A stretch of DNA of 64,000 nucleotides from Promethearchaeota archaeon (GCA_029838195.1 JALGVJ010000004.1:96001-160000); one strand, 5' to 3'. Shown: positions 41,233-47,591, numbered from the stretch's first letter. The notes: a model not told the origin generated them from the letters alone. Numbers and translations: made by a program.

Positions 41233-42345
41233 TTATCTTTCAATTATTGTTTCTTTAATGGCTGTTCCAAAATGAGTAGCTCCTGGTCCCACGTGAGCTA
41301 AAACTTCATCTCCGATCTTTATATCCACCACGGATTTGGCTTTGCCTCCAGGAATTACAAATCGAATGGTCTCTGCATTCTGACAAGTGCAACTAATCGG
41401 GACTTTTTGCTCTCCCTTAGTTGCTTCAAATTCAAATCTCAACATGGGCCGAGTTTCAATTTTAATTCTTCCAACTGAAACGATACGAACGTGCCCTTCA
41501 TGATTCACGGCTAAGACTTGTTTTCCTCCCTTCAATTCGCTTAAATAACTGGTGCGATAGGGTTTATCAGGCTCGTCACTGGGAACTAGAATGTAGGCAG
41601 AAACATCCCCCGCATTAACTCGAAATGGTCTTGAGGCCACGAATTTAGTATCAAAAGTTTCTGAATGGATTAAGCAAAATCCTGCTGCAGTGGATCCAAC
41701 TAGGAAACCTTCTCCAAAATGAAGTAAAGAAGTGGTATCTACACAGACGCGATCTGCTTCTGGAATGTTTTCAATTTTCATAACTCGTGCCTTTGTTAGT
41801 TCAATAGTGAATTCTCCTTGCGTTAATTTTTTTAATTCAATTAAATCATTAGGATGGCGGGGTTCCATGAGCACGCCATCCACCCCTCGTTCTAACGTTT
41901 TCAACATTAATTCTGCCTCTTTCACGTTCTCAACCTCTGCTATAAGTTCTGTTTCATCTAATTGCATTTCAGCAATGAGATTCTCAAATGGGATCACTTT
42001 CCAATCTTTAGCGCTAACAATAATGAAATCAATGCTTGAGTTTCTTGAGATTTCTACGATTTCTCTCTCATCTTCTTTAGATTTTAACACCATATAAAAA
42101 CCAATTTTTTTGTTACTCTCTACGGATTTCCTTATTTCTTCAATTTCTTGTTTATCAGTCAGAATCACGTGAGTTGAAGACACGTCTTTATCTTTCGAAT
42201 AGGTAGTAAGGCGCTCGATGGCTTCAAATTCGGGCCATGTATCTCGAGAAATTAAGAAATTCAACAAATCCTTATTAAACGCTTGTTGTACTAATTCTTT
42301 AAAATTCGCCTTTTTTTTCTCAAAATTCAAGATAATTTTTTTCAT
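41233..42345 (-). CDS. 3-dehydroquinate synthase II
   Basis: DWKVIPFENLIA, LERGVDGV, DRVCVDT, RPFRVNAG, YLSEL, VGRIKIETRP, QNAETIR, HFG.AIKETIIE. Confidence 0.95.
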   Translation of the reverse strand: MKKIILNFEKKKANFKELVQQAFNKDLLNFLISRDTWPEFEAIERLTTYSKDKDVSSTHVILTDKQEIEEIRKSVESNKKIGFYMVLKSKEDEREIVEISRNSSIDFIIVSAKDWKVIPFENLIAEMQLDETELIAEVENVKEAELMLKTLERGVDGVLMEPRHPNDLIELKKLTQGEFTIELTKARVMKIENIPEADRVCVDTTSLLHFGEGFLVGSTAAGFCLIHSETFDTKFVASRPFRVNAGDVSAYILVPSDEPDKPYRTSYLSELKGGKQVLAVNHEGHVRIVSVGRIKIETRPMLRFEFEATKGEQKVPISCTCQNAETIRFVIPGGKAKSVVDIKIGDEVLAHVGPGATHFGTAIKETIIER

Positions 42346-42506: not shown

Positions 42507-43157
42507 ATGGGAATTAAAAAAAAGCTTTTTCCCCGTAAAGCAAAAGAAAAGGATTCACTTGTCGCAAAGGCAAAATCCCATATTCATAGAATGGAATTAG
42601 CATCTCGAAATTTCCAAAAACGAGCCGAGATCAGCCGCCAAAATGCAAAAATTGCATTAAAGCGGGGTGAAAAAGAACGGGCGAAAGCATATTTAATCCA
42701 ATACAAGAACTATCAGAAAAAAATTGACCGCATGAATAATATTCGCACTAAAATAGAGAATTCCCTGCATGCAATCGAAGAAGGGCAAATGATTTCACAA
42801 ACCGGCGATCTTTTTGGTGGAATACGCGATACGTTAAAAGAAATCACAATAAAAGCTTCTCCTGAAAGAGTAGCCGAAATCGCCGAAGATTCTGAACAAT
42901 ATATAGCAGAAATAGAAGAATCAGCGGAAATTTTGGGAGGAGATTTAGAAGTTGACCTGGGAATTAGCGTGGATGATGAGCTAAATGAATTAGAGACTGA
43001 AATCCTTCTTGATCAAAGTGGCGAAATGCCTTCGGCCCCCTCGGAAGAGTTGAAATATATTCCGGAATATGGAACGGAACTAGAAGATACGGAAATGGAT
43101 ACAAAAGAAAAGCTTCAGAGTGAAATAGAAAAGCTTAGGAAGGAACTTGAAGGATAA
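42507..43157 (+). CDS. ESCRT-III protein, Snf7 family (Vps20/32/60-like)
   Basis: Basic helical N-half (AKIALKRGEKERAKAYLIQYKNYQKKID), acidic C-half (VDDELNELE), Pro motif MPSAP, terminal helix LQSEIEKLRKEL. Confidence 0.87.
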   Translation: MGIKKKLFPRKAKEKDSLVAKAKSHIHRMELASRNFQKRAEISRQNAKIALKRGEKERAKAYLIQYKNYQKKIDRMNNIRTKIENSLHAIEEGQMISQTGDLFGGIRDTLKEITIKASPERVAEIAEDSEQYIAEIEESAEILGGDLEVDLGISVDDELNELETEILLDQSGEMPSAPSEELKYIPEYGTELEDTEMDTKEKLQSEIEKLRKELEG

Positions 43158-43223: not shown

Positions 43224-44249
43224 CTACTTTACTTCTTTTAAGGCTTGAACCATGGAATTTAATTTTGCTATCGTTATTTTATAAGCAATCTCTTCATTAT
43301 CAAAGGCTTTTCGTAAAGCTCCAAATCCACAATCTGGTTTAATGATGAGATTTTCTTTTCCATAAAGATCAAATCCTTTTTTTATAAAAGATTTCAAAAA
43401 ATCCATGTCTTCAATGTAATCATCGATTTTTCCTCCTGGAATGGGGCTAATACTGGTTTGGATGGTGCCCATGGCTAAATATTTTCCATGCGCTTCGAGA
43501 TCTTTTTTTTGAAACACGTTAAAATTTTTAGGATTTGTTCTAAATTCGTGATCCATGATCTTAACATCCGTTTGAAGGAGCAAATTATATAATTTAGGAC
43601 TTATTCTTCCACAAACGTGAATTGAGGGAAGGTCTTTAATGCCTGATAAAGCCCGATTTAACATTTCAATAACAAACTCTTCAGAATGAAACCAAATTTT
43701 ATTTCCAACCAAGAGGCTTAATATGGGTTCATCCATAGAGATGATGTTAATTCCAAAATCACTATATGCTTTAGCTACATCTTTCATGTAATCTGCAAAT
43801 TTTTGAACGACCCAATCCACCATAATTCCTCTTGGTTCTTTAAAGATTATGGGTTTAAATCCCTTAGAAAGGGGCTCTCTTAACAGAATTTCACTAGCCA
43901 ATGTAAAAGGGCCTGTTAAGCAGGCTTTAGTTCCTTGAATTGCTTGTTCTTCGTCCGGATGGTTTTTCAGAAATTCAACAATGAAATTTCCATATTTTAA
44001 AGCCACCAACTGATCAGGTATTTTAAATTCACCAGAAAGGTAAAAGGTATCATTAATTTCTTCCAATTCAGGGATTAACCGGGAAAGCGGAGTTAAAAAT
44101 TGAGGGTTCATAGCAACCAGTTGAGGATAACAGGGATAGTCAATTCCAATATTAATTTGGTCGTGAAATGCCCTTTCCATGTTTTCCTTTGTATTAGAGA
44201 GTGGAAACGAGCCTACGACCGTTGTAAATGGTACTATTGGTTTATTCAT
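43224..44249 (-). CDS. Cobalamin-independent methionine synthase catalytic-domain protein (MetE C-terminal type)
   Basis: TTVVGSFP, KACLTGPFTLA, ISMDEP, Zn ligands HVCG, HEF, KPDCGFG. Confidence 0.85.
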   Translation of the reverse strand: MNKPIVPFTTVVGSFPLSNTKENMERAFHDQINIGIDYPCYPQLVAMNPQFLTPLSRLIPELEEINDTFYLSGEFKIPDQLVALKYGNFIVEFLKNHPDEEQAIQGTKACLTGPFTLASEILLREPLSKGFKPIIFKEPRGIMVDWVVQKFADYMKDVAKAYSDFGINIISMDEPILSLLVGNKIWFHSEEFVIEMLNRALSGIKDLPSIHVCGRISPKLYNLLLQTDVKIMDHEFRTNPKNFNVFQKKDLEAHGKYLAMGTIQTSISPIPGGKIDDYIEDMDFLKSFIKKGFDLYGKENLIIKPDCGFGALRKAFDNEEIAYKITIAKLNSMVQALKEVK

Positions 44250-44361: not shown

Positions 44362-46377
44362 TTAAAATTGCATCCCTTCTGAGTAGTTTGTTCTAAAATT
44401 TATTCTTCTATTTCGTTCAATAGCTTCTTTTACGGTAATGATTTCATCTTCTAAAGAAAAAATTTCTTCTTGTAAGCTCCTGTACGTCTTAAAATAATCT
44501 TGCTTGCTAAGGCTTCCTTGATCAAATTTATTTGATAATTCTTTAAGAGTTTCTCTTAATGCATATTCCTTTTTTCTCAATTCATGTAATTTTTTCACGT
44601 GTTCCATGGAACTTCTATTAAATTTTCTGACGAATGTTGATGAAGCTTCTTTTGGAGAATATTCTGGGGTAAAATATTCAGATAAATGATTTTTGCGCAA
44701 GTCTTGATAAAACGGCCCGCATTTTTCACGTTCCTGGAAAATATTTTCGGGGTTATTTTTAACATTATAATCTCTAAATTCTTGAGCATTAATATCCGGG
44801 TTGATGAAATCTTCTCTGTAAAATTCATTTGAACGAGAATAAGGAGACATGTTTTCTTGATTTCTTTTTAATTTATTTATTAGATCCTTTTTCCTCGCGA
44901 ATTCCTTATTTCTTGTCCATTTCCATGCGGGAGGGACGTAAAAATCACTATCCCACATCCATGGATCTTGTTTTTGGTTTTCGCTAGCAAATTCGGATTT
45001 CAGAGCCTCTTCTCCGGGAATTGATTCAAAATTATTTTGATAATCATTGCATGTAAAATATCTATCCCGATGAGAAATCCTCTCATTTCCAAATCCTGCC
45101 TTTTTATTAAAGAAACTATTCTTTTTAATCAGATCCTTATTATATCCATGAGCAGAATTGTTTATTTTTTCATTAAATTTGCACTTCCTGTTATAAAAAG
45201 TATTAATTGCATTTTCAATGAAATGGGAAAGGTTATTCAAGGATATGGTTATAGAATCTAATTTTTTTACCGATTCAAGATTTCTTAAAACAGTTTCATC
45301 GAACGCCCTTGCTAAAAGAATATATTCTATCACTCGTGAGACGGATTTGGGAGGAAGTGCAAATTCATAAGTTCCATAACTAAATTCTAAATAAAGTTTT
45401 TTAAAAAAAAGCCCTTTTTCTCGAATTCGATTTATATCATTTACGGGTACTTTTATGATTAATTCTTGTTTCTTTTTTATAATGCCATATTCATGAATAA
45501 ACGATAAATCATAATTAGTAATAAATAGCATGCCTCTTTTTTTATTAAAAATATCCTGCCCATTATTATTACCATTTACTAATTTTGCGGGGATTGCATA
45601 CACGGCCTTTTCATTTTCCGCTAAACTTAAAAATCGTTTATAAGCTGAAAAATATTTCTTGATTTTTTCAATAAATTGTAGCTTTTTTTCATGGGAATTA
45701 ATTCCTTCAATTATCGGAGGTATGGTTGTTTCCATGTATTCTTGAATAGAATGAAAACTTCGAGATAGATTCTCTAATATTCCTTCTATAATTTTTATAT
45801 TAGAGTTTGGCTGAGCATAGATATTGAAAAAGAATTCTTCATTTACCGATAAATGATGAAAATGAATTCTTAATTTTTCAACTACATCGTTTTTTAATCT
45901 ACTAAATGCTTGATAAAGAGAAATCAGTTCTGTTTCCATGTTCGGAAAATGATAACACTTAATAGGAGGAGCTCGTGCTTCTTTAATTTTTTGTTTTACT
46001 AAAGTCCATTTTTCTAAAACTTCTCTAAGCGGAGGAAGAAGTTCCCTGCTACGAGTGATTAATTCCAAGAATTTCTGTTCTAAACTGTCTTTTTTTTCAA
46101 AAAGATTAATAATATTCATGGAATGACATTTCGGACAAGATTTTTCTACCCGGCTGATTTTAAGTAGTTTCTCACTATGACATTCCTTACAAACCTTCTT
46201 ACCATCAATATTTTCGGGTTCCATGGTAATAGCATTACATTCTTGACAAGTAAAAAAATCCTTACGCTCTTCCTGTAAACACTCCGAGCAGAAACTTGAT
46301 CCGCATTCTTCGCAATAGTGCGTTTCTTTTACTTGTTTCTGACAGAATCTACACGTGGAGGAGATTTTTTCAGCCAT
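44362..46377 (-). CDS. Multidomain protein: six CxxC zinc fingers (FYVE/B-box-like), coiled coil, PH-like domain, low-complexity linker, C-terminal steadiness-box-like hairpin
   Basis: CRFC..HYCEECGSSFCSEC..CQEC..CKEC..CPKC; RGMLFITNYDLSF..VPVNDI..KGLFFKKLYL; ALRETLKELSNKFDQGSLSKQDYFKTYRSLQEEIF. ORF is solid; domain names are inferred. Confidence 0.65.
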   Translation of the reverse strand: MAEKISSTCRFCQKQVKETHYCEECGSSFCSECLQEERKDFFTCQECNAITMEPENIDGKKVCKECHSEKLLKISRVEKSCPKCHSMNIINLFEKKDSLEQKFLELITRSRELLPPLREVLEKWTLVKQKIKEARAPPIKCYHFPNMETELISLYQAFSRLKNDVVEKLRIHFHHLSVNEEFFFNIYAQPNSNIKIIEGILENLSRSFHSIQEYMETTIPPIIEGINSHEKKLQFIEKIKKYFSAYKRFLSLAENEKAVYAIPAKLVNGNNNGQDIFNKKRGMLFITNYDLSFIHEYGIIKKKQELIIKVPVNDINRIREKGLFFKKLYLEFSYGTYEFALPPKSVSRVIEYILLARAFDETVLRNLESVKKLDSITISLNNLSHFIENAINTFYNRKCKFNEKINNSAHGYNKDLIKKNSFFNKKAGFGNERISHRDRYFTCNDYQNNFESIPGEEALKSEFASENQKQDPWMWDSDFYVPPAWKWTRNKEFARKKDLINKLKRNQENMSPYSRSNEFYREDFINPDINAQEFRDYNVKNNPENIFQEREKCGPFYQDLRKNHLSEYFTPEYSPKEASSTFVRKFNRSSMEHVKKLHELRKKEYALRETLKELSNKFDQGSLSKQDYFKTYRSLQEEIFSLEDEIITVKEAIERNRRINFRTNYSEGMQF

Positions 46378-46691
46378 ATTTTTACACTTTTTTGAACACT
46401 CAAAAATTCATAAAAAATTAAAGACAGCTATATCAAAAAATTAGAATCAACTCTCTTTAATATTAATAATACATGTATATCATCAGAGAGATATTCCCCT
46501 TCGAAAATAACCAGGATGAATTTAAGAAGTTTATACTCCAACTTCTAATTTTTAATAACTCATAGCAGATATCTAAACCTCTGGGAATTCTAAACATTCA
46601 TTTTTCATGCTACATTTTGTCAAATAGGAGTTATTAATTATTCTTTAAAAAAATACATCAATAAAACAGCTTCTAATTGCTCATTAAGATA

Positions 46692-47264
46692 ATGACAATT
46701 ATTGACATGCACGTTCATTTGAGCTCACGCTCTCCTTGTTCAAATCTATCCAGCACGCAATTATTTAATTCGTTATCTCATAAAATTGATGGAATTTGCA
46801 TTACTGATCATGGCATTTTAAGTCCTATAAGAAATTTTCACGGCGAGGGTTTATTAATTTTTTATGGTGTAGAAATCACATGTTTTGAGGGAGATTTATT
46901 GGCATATGGAATTAAATTTCTGCCTCAATCTAAAAAAGCGGACCATGTCATTAACCACATACATGAAAATGGAGGCATAGCAATCTGTGCTCATCCGTAT
47001 TCAGCCCGTCATAACGCATTTGAGGATGATGTGTTTAATCATGATTTTGATGCCATTGAACTTAATGGAGGAATTAAAAAGCATGAAAATGAATTAGCAC
47101 GAAAGGCGGCTAAAATCATGGATCTTCCTTTAATTGGGGGAAGTGATGCTCATTTTCCCCATCAATTAAACACGTATGCAACGTTCTTTGATAAAAAGAT
47201 TTTAGGCCTTGGAGATTTGGTACGGGAAATAAAAGCAAAAAGATGCAGGCCCGTGAGAATTTGA
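46692..47264 (+). CDS. PHP-domain phosphoesterase
   Basis: DMHVH, ITDH, GVEIT, AHPY, GGSDAH; ATG at 46692. Confidence 0.92.
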   Translation: MTIIDMHVHLSSRSPCSNLSSTQLFNSLSHKIDGICITDHGILSPIRNFHGEGLLIFYGVEITCFEGDLLAYGIKFLPQSKKADHVINHIHENGGIAICAHPYSARHNAFEDDVFNHDFDAIELNGGIKKHENELARKAAKIMDLPLIGGSDAHFPHQLNTYATFFDKKILGLGDLVREIKAKRCRPVRI

Positions 47265-47297: not shown

Positions 47298-47591
47298 TCA
47301 TTTAATGATCTTAATTTTTTGTCCAATCGCTTGCCCGGGCAATCCTGCCTTTTTAAAAAGTGCTCTCACGGCACCATTATTGCCATGAGCCCGAGTAATA
47401 ACGCCTTTCAATTCTTTTCCCGTCGGACTCTTCCACATGACAGTTCTTCCAATTAACTTTTTAGCTTCTTTTCTCGTCGTGATCTTGGGAAAAACTAAAA
47501 TATTCTGCTTGAGCTTTACGGTATGCCTGCCACGTCGATAATTTGATATGTATCCTTCCATTCCCAGCAATTCTAATTTGTTCAAAGGCAT
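47298..47591 (-). CDS. rpl35ae: 50S ribosomal protein L35Ae (eL33)
   Basis: YRRGRHT, LIGRTVMWK, GVITRAHGNNGAVRALF..LPGQAIG. Confidence 0.94.
   Translation of the reverse strand: MPLNKLELLGMEGYISNYRRGRHTVKLKQNILVFPKITTRKEAKKLIGRTVMWKSPTGKELKGVITRAHGNNGAVRALFKKAGLPGQAIGQKIKIIK

Follow-up and report, generated by a model that had tools for sequence, protein, structure and literature searches.

A Promethearchaeota orthologue of Lokiarch_16740, encoded near ESCRT-III, that probably works as an ESCRT-I-type adaptor lacking a UEV domain

No part of the Asgard ESCRT pathway is understood as poorly as ESCRT-I. In Thermoproteota, CdvB is recruited by CdvA. The closest described counterpart of the gene analysed here is Lokiarch_16740 (KKK44603.1; 650 aa) from Lokiarchaeum sp. 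GC14_75, which was tabulated in 2018 as an Asgard Vps23/TSG101 homologue (Caspi & Dekker 2018, PMC5840170) and is the type example of asCOG cog.011556, Znr_CC_PH_SB, in the supplement of Makarova et al. 2024, mBio (PMC10936438), where the family name is also written ‘Znr_PH_CC_SB’. The family is described there as a ‘likely ESCRT-I component’ with its ‘PH expected to be membrane associated’, and the supplement gives the locus order L35Ae, Lokiarch_16740, MetE and Vps20 ESCRT-III. No experiments on Znr_CC_PH_SB proteins were found in the literature searched. Lokiarch_16740 is not in the Y2H set or sequence list of Hatano et al. 2022, which includes Lokiarch_16100, 10170 and 37450; the supplementary domain legend of that study has RING, CC and PH labels that could not be linked to Lokiarch_16740.

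The window analysed here is a stretch of 64,000 nucleotides from a Promethearchaeota archaeon, in which a single ORF of 671 codons runs on the minus strand from an ATG at 46377 to a stop codon at 44362-44364, the start codon matching the start position in homologues (Table 1). More than 180 full-length homologues share 40-50% identity with the 671-aa protein. One of them, P0105 (42% identity, 95% coverage, E 5e-144), falls in the same 90% cluster as KKK44603.1 (cluster look-up, P0105/P0131). This homology, the listing of Lokiarch_16740 under cog.011556 and the same locus order identify the protein, by sequence comparison, as an orthologue of Lokiarch_16740 and a member of Znr_CC_PH_SB. The earlier note on this DNA had proposed an undescribed ESCRT adaptor, which is wrong, as PMC10936438 had already read the domains of cog.011556 in this way and inferred an ESCRT-I role, and Lokiarch_16740 had been listed as a Vps23/TSG101 homologue already in 2018 (PMC5840170). 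The gene is real, ordinary and already known, and because the literature already covers the family itself, its architecture, its likely role and its gene neighbourhood, the window adds one more orthologue only. Minor contributions of the present analysis are profile matches that are significant for the steadiness box, clear evidence against the FYVE label, the homologues of the helical-PH cassette in bacteria and the observation that the genus apparently lacks a canonical Vps28. An NCBIfam search matched no family to the 671-aa protein or to its ESCRT-III neighbour. At NCBI, relatives of the protein are named ‘B-box zinc finger protein’.

Table 1. Genes and protein segments in the window, with positions counted from its first nucleotide
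Feature	Residues (aa)	Position (nt)	Strand	Basis
ESCRT-III gene, Snf7 family		42507..43157	+	Pfam Snf7, E 4.4e-15
MetE-like gene (cobalamin-independent methionine synthase family)		43224..44249	-	Pfam Meth_synt_2, E 4e-9
Znr_CC_PH_SB family gene, 671 aa + stop		44362..46377	-	ORF, translation, homologues
N-terminal zinc module	1-91	46105..46377	-	Six CxxC pairs, 12 invariant Cys
Conserved helical domain	92-250	45628..46104	-	AlphaFold2 pLDDT >90, conservation 0.72
PH-fold domain, GRAM/GLUE/bPH type	251-365	45283..45627	-	Fold matches, conservation 0.81
Post-PH helices	366-425	45103..45282	-	AlphaFold2 helices 367-375, 381-424
Predicted disordered linker (~160 residues)	426-585	44623..45102	-	pLDDT <50, mean column identity 0.35
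Steadiness-box helical hairpin	586-667	44377..44622	-	Vps23_core, profile search, hhalign

In the AlphaFold2 model of the protein (mean pLDDT 76), helices 588-619 and 625-667 form a C-terminal hairpin. Pfam Vps23_core (PF09454) matches residues 594-640 with 21.9 bits (E 1.7e-4) in the whole protein and with 26.1 bits (E 8.8e-6) in a scan of the C-terminus by itself, both below the threshold of 26.8 bits, and it is matched by 29 of 41 family members. A phylum-wide profile of the hairpin, searched against 177,635 PDB sequences, placed the yeast Vps23 ESCRT-I core in the top three positions (E 5.2e-6, 8.1e-6 and 2.2e-5) and TSG101 at E 0.09; with the yeast Vps23 core, 55-58 residues align without gaps. 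With hhalign, the hairpin matched canonical Loki Vps28 at 93% probability (E 3.4e-7) over Vps28 positions 3-57. The coiled-coil families APG6_N and Snapin also score on the hairpin in Pfam, and weak matches to Pfam CdvA (PF18822) occur in one distant orthologue (E 0.0096) and in two Loki members. A fold search returned generic helical-hairpin matches only (ING3 and a designed protein, Z ~10.4); such matches are uninformative for helical folds, and sequence profiles were used instead. By these profiles the hairpin is homologous to the steadiness box, as the earlier note had proposed from a gap-free alignment to Vps23, and scores specifically as a Vps23/Vps28 steadiness box, not as a merely generic coiled coil. 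No Pfam match to UEV or UQ_con was found in the 671-aa protein, whose N-terminus is the zinc module, in keeping with the prediction of a UEV-less subunit.

The long helical region anticipated from the sequence is present in the model as helices 92-135, 147-178 and 191-245 (pLDDT >90). It carries the conserved motifs R-PP..YHFP.ME and EYFFDIY.QPN.NI.IIEGI and is thus not a featureless coiled coil. The PH superfold is a seven-stranded β-sandwich capped by a C-terminal helix, and in the model a β-sandwich with a closing helix spans residues 258-358 (nt ~45304-45606), where a PH/GRAM/GLUE-like segment had been placed at 45310-45610. Conservation within the protein peaks in this domain (motif KK.G.LFITN.DLSF.HE.G..KKK). 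VIA-align matched it to the PH-GRAM domain of MTMR2 (Z 13.6, rmsd 2.5 over 106 aa), Lam6 (Z 12.4), the GLUE domains of Vps36 (Z 11.4) and EAP45 (Z 11.1) and TFIIH p62 (Z 10.7), and Foldseek likewise returned Lam6, Vps36 and MTMR2; as modelled, the domain is closest to the GRAM/GLUE type. At the sequence level, Pfam, the Vps36 GLUE family (PF11605) included, gave no match to residues 250-425 at E up to 5, and a PH profile run against PDB sequences gave two non-significant matches only (Gsp1, E 0.79; Vps36, E 0.9). In one distant orthologue bPH_3 (PF14470) exceeds its cut-off (26.2 bits vs 23), as does GRAM (PF02893) in bacterial relatives of the helical-PH module (39.8 and 29.9 bits). The conserved Lys clusters K278/K279, K301-303, K309 and K326/K327 would be compatible with binding to an anionic surface. 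Foldseek and VIA-align also listed the DH-PH proteins ECT2, Asef, Dbs, Vav1 and Tiam1, but with rmsd values of 7-27 Å and TM scores of 0.15-0.34; a RhoGEF identity was rejected, and the resemblance in the model is read as one of helices-then-PH arrangement and not of a DH domain.

The helical and PH domains align as one unit (hhalign 98.4%, E 7e-15, 219 columns) with a family of bacterial proteins of ~355 aa that consist of a helical domain, a GRAM/bPH domain and a C-terminal zinc ribbon, exemplified by MDX9849832.1 (Anaerolineaceae). The bacterial genes follow CHAD and PhoU/PstB genes and are not near ESCRT-III-like genes, which argues that the module has no intrinsic ESCRT meaning.

The N-terminal module contains the six CxxC pairs read earlier from the sequence (C9/12, C22/25, C30/33, C44/47, C63/66 and C81/84), and the string CRFC-x7-HYCEECGSSFCSEC is literally present in the translation. 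None of the 12 Cys varies among 80 Loki-type homologues or among 23 sequences that span the phylum; metal binding is predicted, presumably at three Zn sites. In spacing, pairs one to four are B-box/ZZ/RING/FYVE-like; pairs five and six make a classical zinc ribbon that encloses a long hairpin. In FYVE domains the motifs WxxD, R(R/K)HHCR and RVC form the PI3P pocket. The spacing CxxC-x9-CxxCGxxFCxxC-x10-CxxC resembles that of FYVE fingers and raises the prospect that the N-terminal cluster is a genuine FYVE finger targeting phosphoinositide membranes and the protein an ESCRT-0/Vps27-like PI3P reader. Weak matches point the same way: Pfam FYVE (PF01363) reaches 10.7 bits in the whole protein and 16.0 bits (E 0.013) on residues 1-95, and VIA-align places the FYVE fingers of RUFY and EEA1 at Z 3.2 (ranks 37-38; 28-31% identity over ~48 residues). 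The Pfam cut-off, however, is 27.8 bits, none of the three signatures nor any basic cluster occurs in the sequence, and the equivalent stretch, KETHYCEECG, has an acidic ETHYCEEC. ZZ, B-box, RING/U-box and plain Zn ribbons score equally well or better: the domain model (pLDDT 82.5) has best fold matches of only Z 4.0-4.6 (ribosomal Zn ribbon, ZZ, B-box and U-box), Foldseek ranks an MCM Zn ribbon first (E 0.12; EEA1 at E 0.83) and Pfam gives DZR 24.6 bits, itself below cut-off. A Pfam scan of 10 distant orthologues gave zf-B_box and DZR matches and none to FYVE. FYVE membership is thus largely refuted and a PI3P reader of this kind is very improbable; of the FYVE-like finger without a basic patch proposed by the earlier note, the spacing and the absence of the basic motif stand and the family call falls.

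The linker between the post-PH helices and the hairpin, poorly conserved and predicted to be disordered over residues 428-585, varies in length over the family, whole proteins measuring 484-738 aa, and keeps two short motifs, F..QN...PNR.Q at ~aa 474-487 and NHLS..F at aa 563-569, the latter reading FRDHLE in Thor-like orthologues. Its description as N/F-rich is mildly correct (N 1.3x and F 1.14x the whole-protein frequency), but W, D and P are enriched more. The combination predicted in the earlier note is real, one polypeptide uniting multi-zinc module, helical domain, PH/GRAM-type domain and steadiness-box hairpin.

As had been noticed from the sequence, ESCRT-III is encoded one gene away, with the MetE-like gene between. 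The ESCRT-III and adaptor genes are convergent and thus neither co-transcribed nor part of one operon. In Lokiarchaeum GC14_75 the gene in the same position, Lokiarch_16760, is annotated as Vps20 class (PMC10936438, PMC5840170). Found in some genera (loci L037-L041 and L046) but not in others (L042-L045), the MetE-like gene represents a lineage-specific insertion between the two. Synteny with ESCRT-III is conserved over the phylum: in 16 of 20 loci, drawn from six taxonomic families, ESCRT-III lies within 1.3 kb of the adaptor gene, and some ESCRT gene lies within 9 kb in 19 of the 20. Of the outcomes that would have refuted the earlier note, neither a C-terminus scoring only as generic coiled coil nor an unconserved linkage to ESCRT-III was observed. 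In one taxonomic family (probably Thorarchaeia, judging by source labels) the adaptor gene abuts ESCRT-III-Vps4-Vps25-Vps22. Of 301 genomes sampled from the phylum, 204 yielded Znr_CC_PH_SB proteins, and the family is likely ancestral.

These neighbourhoods bear on whether the protein belongs to the ESCRT pathway at all. It could be a non-ESCRT zinc-finger/coiled-coil/PH scaffold, for example a B-box/RING-like ubiquitin-system factor or a membrane- or polyphosphate-associated protein resembling the bacterial relatives of its module, with a merely steadiness-box-like hairpin and an ESCRT-III adjacency that reflects inherited gene order. The convergent arrangement, the CHAD/PhoU/PstB neighbours of the bacterial helical-PH module, the B-box name used by NCBI, the Vps23_core score of the target itself below the curated cut-off and the scores of APG6_N and Snapin would all fit such a protein. 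The hairpin, on the other hand, matches the Vps23 core and the Vps28 N-terminus specifically, without gaps and significantly, the former ranking first in the PDB search, and the adjacency is kept in taxonomic families whose versions of this protein share just 21-26% identity, and changes from one ESCRT neighbourhood to another, which makes inertia alone hard to accept. We consider a non-ESCRT scaffold to be quite unlikely.

Pfam Vps23_core and the family hairpin profile, run over the genome, matched only the 671-aa protein. A canonical Vps28 of ~215 aa was not found in this genome (96.6% complete, 94 contigs) with Pfam, tblastn or an HMM built from 11 same-family Vps28 sequences, nor was one found in one sampled congener; canonical Vps28 is present in most other genera of the taxonomic family. 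Apart from a false VWA match, Pfam VPS28 found nothing but the C-terminal domain of a 786-aa PCI/DDRGK/UFL1-like protein, and the sole match of a Vps28 profile among all ORFs of the genome was the hairpin of the 671-aa protein (E 0.007). The expected headpiece partner was thus not found here. A Vps23 combining UEV and steadiness box was likewise not found in this genus, and the 671-aa protein may consequently be its only steadiness-box organiser. Complex prediction with the genome's Vps22 and the C-terminal hairpin, run without controls, gave a score of 0.00 that speaks neither for nor against binding.

The apparent lack of Vps28 or a second steadiness box in the genome would suit a direct, CdvA-like recruiter that bypasses ESCRT-I and ESCRT-II, in which the PH/helical unit anchors to the membrane and brings in the neighbouring Vps20/32/60-type ESCRT-III, the hairpin serving self-assembly and not a Vps28 headpiece. 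ESCRT-III is the one constant neighbour over the phylum, in a conserved convergent pair; steadiness-box and CdvA hairpins have been reported to be homologous (PMC10936438), and the weak Pfam CdvA matches described above agree with this. Against it, the 671-aa protein has no PRC barrel and no recognisable ESCRT-III-binding peptide, its hairpin profile fits Vps23 and Vps28 far better than CdvA, and Thor-like genomes place the gene beside a complete ESCRT-II/III/Vps4 cluster. In addition, Asgard ESCRT-III is not known to have the winged helix that is bound by CdvA (Samson et al. 2011). A CdvA-like recruiter is, on balance, unlikely.

The explanation that best accounts for the observations jointly, and which we hold to be probable, is that this orthologue of Lokiarch_16740 works as a UEV-less ESCRT-I-type adaptor, the most likely role that we infer for the protein. 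In such an adaptor the C-terminal hairpin would pack with other steadiness-box hairpins into a headpiece-like assembly, candidate partners being the N-terminus of Vps28 in genomes that have it, further copies of the protein itself, and the helical extensions at the N-termini of Vps22/Vps25. Binding to a membrane surface and/or protein cargo would fall to the rigid N-terminal unit, comprising the three-zinc module, the helical domain and the GRAM-type PH domain, with the long disordered linker and its two conserved short motifs as a tether. ESCRT-II/ESCRT-III, including the ESCRT-III encoded next to it, might in this way be recruited to a defined membrane site; membrane recognition, ESCRT-I assembly and the other binding steps are all putative. 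More speculatively, and unlikely as it seems to us, the protein could be the sole steadiness-box organiser of the genus and form a minimal, Vps28-free ESCRT-I: a self-assembling, PH-anchored recruiter of the adjacent Vps20-class ESCRT-III, or of ESCRT-II through the Vps22/Vps25 extensions, its membrane-binding helical-GRAM cassette deriving from a prokaryotic module and not from a eukaryote-type invention. Being widespread, likely ancestral and in tight linkage with ESCRT-III, the Znr_CC_PH_SB family is well worth biochemical study.

Compared with Vps23/TSG101 (PDB codes 2F66, 2P22, 2CAZ and 6VME), the 671-aa protein has a homologous C-terminal hairpin (ungapped 55-residue alignment, E 5e-6). 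In contrast to Vps23, it has neither a UEV domain nor a Pro-rich region, possesses zinc, helical and PH domains without counterpart in Vps23, and shows no long stalk helix ahead of the hairpin, as residues 510-584 are predicted to be disordered (pLDDT <50) and the hairpin begins at 588. With Vps36/EAP45 (GLUE domains, PDB codes 2CAY and 2DX5) it shares a PH fold of the GRAM-like class in an ESCRT-linked protein with zinc fingers (Z 11.1-11.4). It lacks the winged-helix ESCRT-II core, however, and its PH domain is not split by NZF fingers as in Vps36; the GRAM domains of MTMR2 and Lam6 match that domain equally well or better, and lipid or ubiquitin binding by it is putative. The FYVE fingers of Vps27/Hrs and EEA1 have four similarly spaced CxxC pairs, including CxxCGxxFCxxC, whereas the zinc module is below the Pfam cut-off, misses all three signature motifs and resembles FYVE in fold no better than it resembles other binuclear zinc fingers. 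CdvA of Thermoproteota (PF18822) is likewise encoded beside ESCRT-III and shares a presumed membrane-recruitment role, but where the 671-aa protein has zinc and PH domains CdvA has a PRC barrel, and a peptide at the CdvA C-terminus binds the winged helix of CdvB; few Znr_CC_PH_SB members give CdvA matches in Pfam, all marginal. The bacterial helical-GRAM proteins have the motifs R..(H/g)Y.(F/P)..LE and G.L(F/Y)(I/L)T(N/D).RL.F in common with the 671-aa protein, while lacking its N-terminal zinc cluster, linker and steadiness box.

With Lokiarch_16740 itself, nothing categorical differs. The published description of the family has three zinc ribbons (PMC10936438), and the model obtained here fits a cross-braced pair plus one ribbon equally well. 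In this copy a PHP-family gene lies between the adaptor gene and L35Ae, unlike the Lokiarch_16740 locus, and the linker is slightly longer (671 vs 650 aa for the whole protein). In both proteins the zinc module is followed by helical region, PH domain, linker and steadiness box, both genes are neighboured by L35Ae, a MetE-like gene and a Vps20-class ESCRT-III, and the role proposed for both is that of an ESCRT-I component.

The adaptor protein displays all five features described in the earlier note (zinc cluster, helical region, PH/GRAM/GLUE-like segment, linker and C-terminal hairpin), both in its sequence and in an AlphaFold2 model generated from an 80-sequence alignment (mean pLDDT 76). 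Six CxxC pairs (Cys-9/12, 22/25, 30/33, 44/47, 63/66 and 81/84), whose cysteines are invariant in 80 close homologues and in a phylum-wide sample of 23 sequences, map to the β-rich zinc knuckles of residues 1-91. These are followed in the model by three long helices (92-245), a β-sandwich with a closing helix (258-358), helices continuing to residue 424, a disordered stretch (428-585) and a terminal two-helix hairpin (588-667). The nucleotide ranges previously proposed for the PH-like segment and the hairpin translate to residues 257-357 and 593-647, respectively, in agreement with the model. Zinc cluster, helical domain, PH domain and hairpin are kept in all orthologues, while the linker ranges from about 160-250 residues down to about 30-60. 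It had been called N/F-rich; slight enrichment was indeed found (Asn 1.3-fold, Phe 1.14-fold), but the term fits poorly, and disorder and weak conservation characterize the linker better. Two short motifs are retained within it, F..QN...PNR.Q (residues 474-487, window ~44917-44958) and NHLS..F (residues 563-569, window ~44671-44691; FRDHLE in Thor-like orthologues), and most orthologues display an aromatic C-terminal tail (FYT, YFS, FRW, YRF); these elements are candidate docking motifs.

With the whole protein as query, Pfam Vps23_core matches residues 594-640 (E 1.7e-4), slightly below the curated cut-off; this is the sole match to the model in the 4.5-Mb genome, and 29 of 41 family members match it. 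Among PDB sequences, a profile of Loki-type hairpins ranked yeast Vps23 and Vps28 highest, with marginal E-values. The match became significant when orthologues from other taxonomic families were added to the profile, three yeast Vps23 core entries then coming first (E 5.2e-6, 8.1e-6 and 2.2e-5), aligned without gaps across 55 residues, followed by human TSG101 (0.09). Comparison by hhalign with canonical ~215-residue Vps28 sequences of the same taxonomic family gave 93% probability and an E-value of 3.4e-7 over Vps28 positions 3-57, which constitute Vps28's own steadiness-box hairpin. These specific matches to the Vps23 core and the Vps28 N-terminus argue against a merely generic coiled coil and bear out the proposed assignment: judged by sequence, the protein ends in a steadiness-box hairpin.

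The PH-like domain is the best-conserved part of the protein (0.81) and contains the motif G.LFITN.DLSF, typical of GRAM/GLUE/bPH domains. A VIA-align search over 48,161 PDB representatives revealed the MTMR2 PH-GRAM domain as the top match (Z 13.6, rmsd 2.5, 106 residues), followed by a Leishmania PH-like domain (12.9) and Lam6 (12.4), with Vps36 GLUE, EAP45 GLUE and TFIIH p62 scoring 11.4, 11.1 and 10.7, respectively. Foldseek concurs, and the PH/GRAM/GLUE-like segment is thus confirmed at the level of the modelled fold. Pfam PH-family models did not match the target itself; one distant orthologue passes bPH_3.

The zinc module was also considered as a FYVE finger, a candidate that was rejected: residues 1-95 alone score 16 bits against the Pfam FYVE cut-off of 27.8, and the DZR, Zn_ribbon_6 and B-box models come close to FYVE or exceed it. 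Distant orthologues match zf-B_box, ANCHR-like B-box and DZR in Pfam, with FYVE never among their matches. Modelled alone (pLDDT 82.5), the module gave no Foldseek match at E ≤ 0.001, MCM zinc ribbons leading at E 0.12, and its maximum VIA-align Z was 4.6 (ZZ, B-box, U-box and RING 4.0-4.3; FYVE 3.2). FYVE signature motifs, looked for in the target sequence, are absent. With a sub-threshold Pfam score, a fold match below those of ZZ, B-box and RING domains and no signature motifs, the FYVE-like designation does not hold; the likeness in CxxC spacing is real, yet common to binuclear zinc fingers as a class.

Searching 1.8 billion representatives with a profile of residues 92-400 retrieved 262 proteins at E ≤ 0.001 and 71 at E ≤ 1e-30. 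The tail of the matches holds ~355-residue proteins, one from an Anaerolineaceae bacterium, which align to the helical and PH domains as a single unit (hhalign 98.4%, E 7e-15, 219 columns). Some related tail proteins pass Pfam GRAM, the ~355-residue group being sub-threshold. The bacterial ~355-residue proteins end in a CxxC...CxxC zinc ribbon, and their genes immediately follow a CHAD-domain gene and PhoU/PstB, neighbours that suggest an ancestral helical-PH module in a phosphate or polyphosphate context. Since it has bacterial homologues, the helical-PH cassette would therefore be an older prokaryotic module, and it appears to be neither ESCRT-specific nor a eukaryote-type invention.

Coordinates of the adaptor gene, its neighbours and related loci (L, fetched loci; C, contigs of the source genome)
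Feature	Location	Strand	Remark
Adaptor gene	window 46377 to 44362	-	single 671-codon ORF
PHP-family gene	window 46677-47264	+	neighbour of adaptor gene
Ribosomal protein L35Ae gene	window 47298-47591	-	neighbour of adaptor gene
MetE-like gene	window 43224-44249	-	between adaptor and ESCRT-III genes
ESCRT-III/Snf7 gene	window 42507-43157	+	convergent with adaptor gene
3-dehydroquinate synthase II gene	window 41233-42345	-	neighbour of adaptor gene
Main ESCRT cluster	C87, L005:6929-10759		Vps22 (EAP30) +, Vps25 (ESCRT-II) -, Vps4 -, second ESCRT-III (Snf7) +
786-aa PCI/DDRGK/UFL1-like protein	C54, L006:6785-9145	-	sole above-cut-off Pfam VPS28 match in genome
E2-like gene (322 aa, borderline UQ_con), then RWD/UEV-like gene (145 aa)	C4, L060:426-1989		
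Bacterial ~355-aa relatives	L073:6001-7080; L077:6001-7071		metagenome/MAG contigs

The adaptor gene lies in DNA of low G+C (~0.30-0.35) and, as proposed, one gene from ESCRT-III, the MetE-like gene alone intervening. Of 301 genomes sampled from the phylum, 204 contain a match to the protein (64 of 68 within its own family). The ESCRT proteins of the source genome were mapped onto 20 loci from six taxonomic families: ESCRT-III lies within 1.3 kb of the adaptor gene in 16, convergent in every case, and 4-8 kb away in two; one locus has no ESCRT gene, and another carries Vps4-Vps25-Vps22, with ESCRT-III undetected by own-genome queries. The linkage is thus conserved. In one family, probably Thorarchaeia as judged by source labels, the adaptor gene abuts ESCRT-III-Vps4-Vps25-Vps22. 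Some genera of the family and Lokiarchaeum GC14_75 also carry the MetE-like gene, and other genera lack it; because adaptor and ESCRT-III genes are directly adjacent (~80-140 bp apart) in four loci from other genera of the same family (L042-L045), this gene looks like a lineage-specific insertion between two convergent genes whose pairing is older.

The main ESCRT cluster of the genome, on a contig other than the adaptor's, has the order Vps22, Vps25-Vps4, ESCRT-III. Its Vps4 comprises MIT, AAA and Vps4_C domains, and Vps25 and Vps22 carry helical N-terminal extensions (147 and ~105 residues, respectively). Relaxed Pfam, tblastn and a family-specific HMM recovered no canonical ~215-residue Vps28 from this genome; most other genera of the family have one. 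In the 786-residue protein, a C-terminal Vps28_C, the only domain matched by Pfam VPS28, is joined to DDRGK, E3_UFM1_ligase-like and PCI winged-helix repeats; in the one sampled congener Pfam likewise gave only a ~790-residue protein. The E2-like and RWD/UEV-like gene pair, a possible source of ubiquitin-system or UEV components, displays no steadiness-box fusion. The best-supported reading, as published, is that the protein is probably a UEV-less ESCRT-I-type adaptor. We infer a mechanism in which a rigid zinc/helical/PH head would bind membrane or cargo, while the disordered linker would tether it to the steadiness-box hairpin, which would join other ESCRT hairpins. The main rival, direct recruitment of ESCRT-III in the manner of CdvA, is rather unlikely.

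The homologue search recovered >180 full-length relatives (640-745 residues), those with a named source all from MAGs of Loki-type and other Asgard archaea. In NCBI they carry the names 'B-box zinc finger protein' or 'hypothetical', and in UniRef the database homologue P0105 is named 'SB domain-containing protein'; P0105 falls in one 90% cluster with KKK44603.1 (Lokiarch_16740, Lokiarchaeum sp. GC14_75). It is virtually certain that the target belongs to the Znr_CC_PH_SB family. The earlier finding holds up and had been read correctly except for 'FYVE' and 'undescribed': the family is published as cog.011556, and Lokiarch_16740 was tabulated already in 2018, as an Asgard Vps23/TSG101 homologue, with Lokiarch_16760 as ESCRT-III (Caspi & Dekker 2018, PMC5840170). 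Lu et al. 2023 treated cog.011556 as a steadiness/Vps23-box family, and Makarova et al. 2024 (PMC10936438) described it as 'a likely ESCRT-I component', with a PH domain that 'is expected to be membrane associated'. The literature searched yielded no further use of the family names beyond those papers and no experimental work on a Znr_CC_PH_SB protein. In the supplement of PMC10936438, the Lokiarchaeum gene (650 residues) is assigned to cog.011556 and is flanked by L35Ae and MetE, then Vps20-class ESCRT-III; the order L35Ae - gene - MetE - ESCRT-III in Lokiarchaeum GC14_75 matches that of the window.
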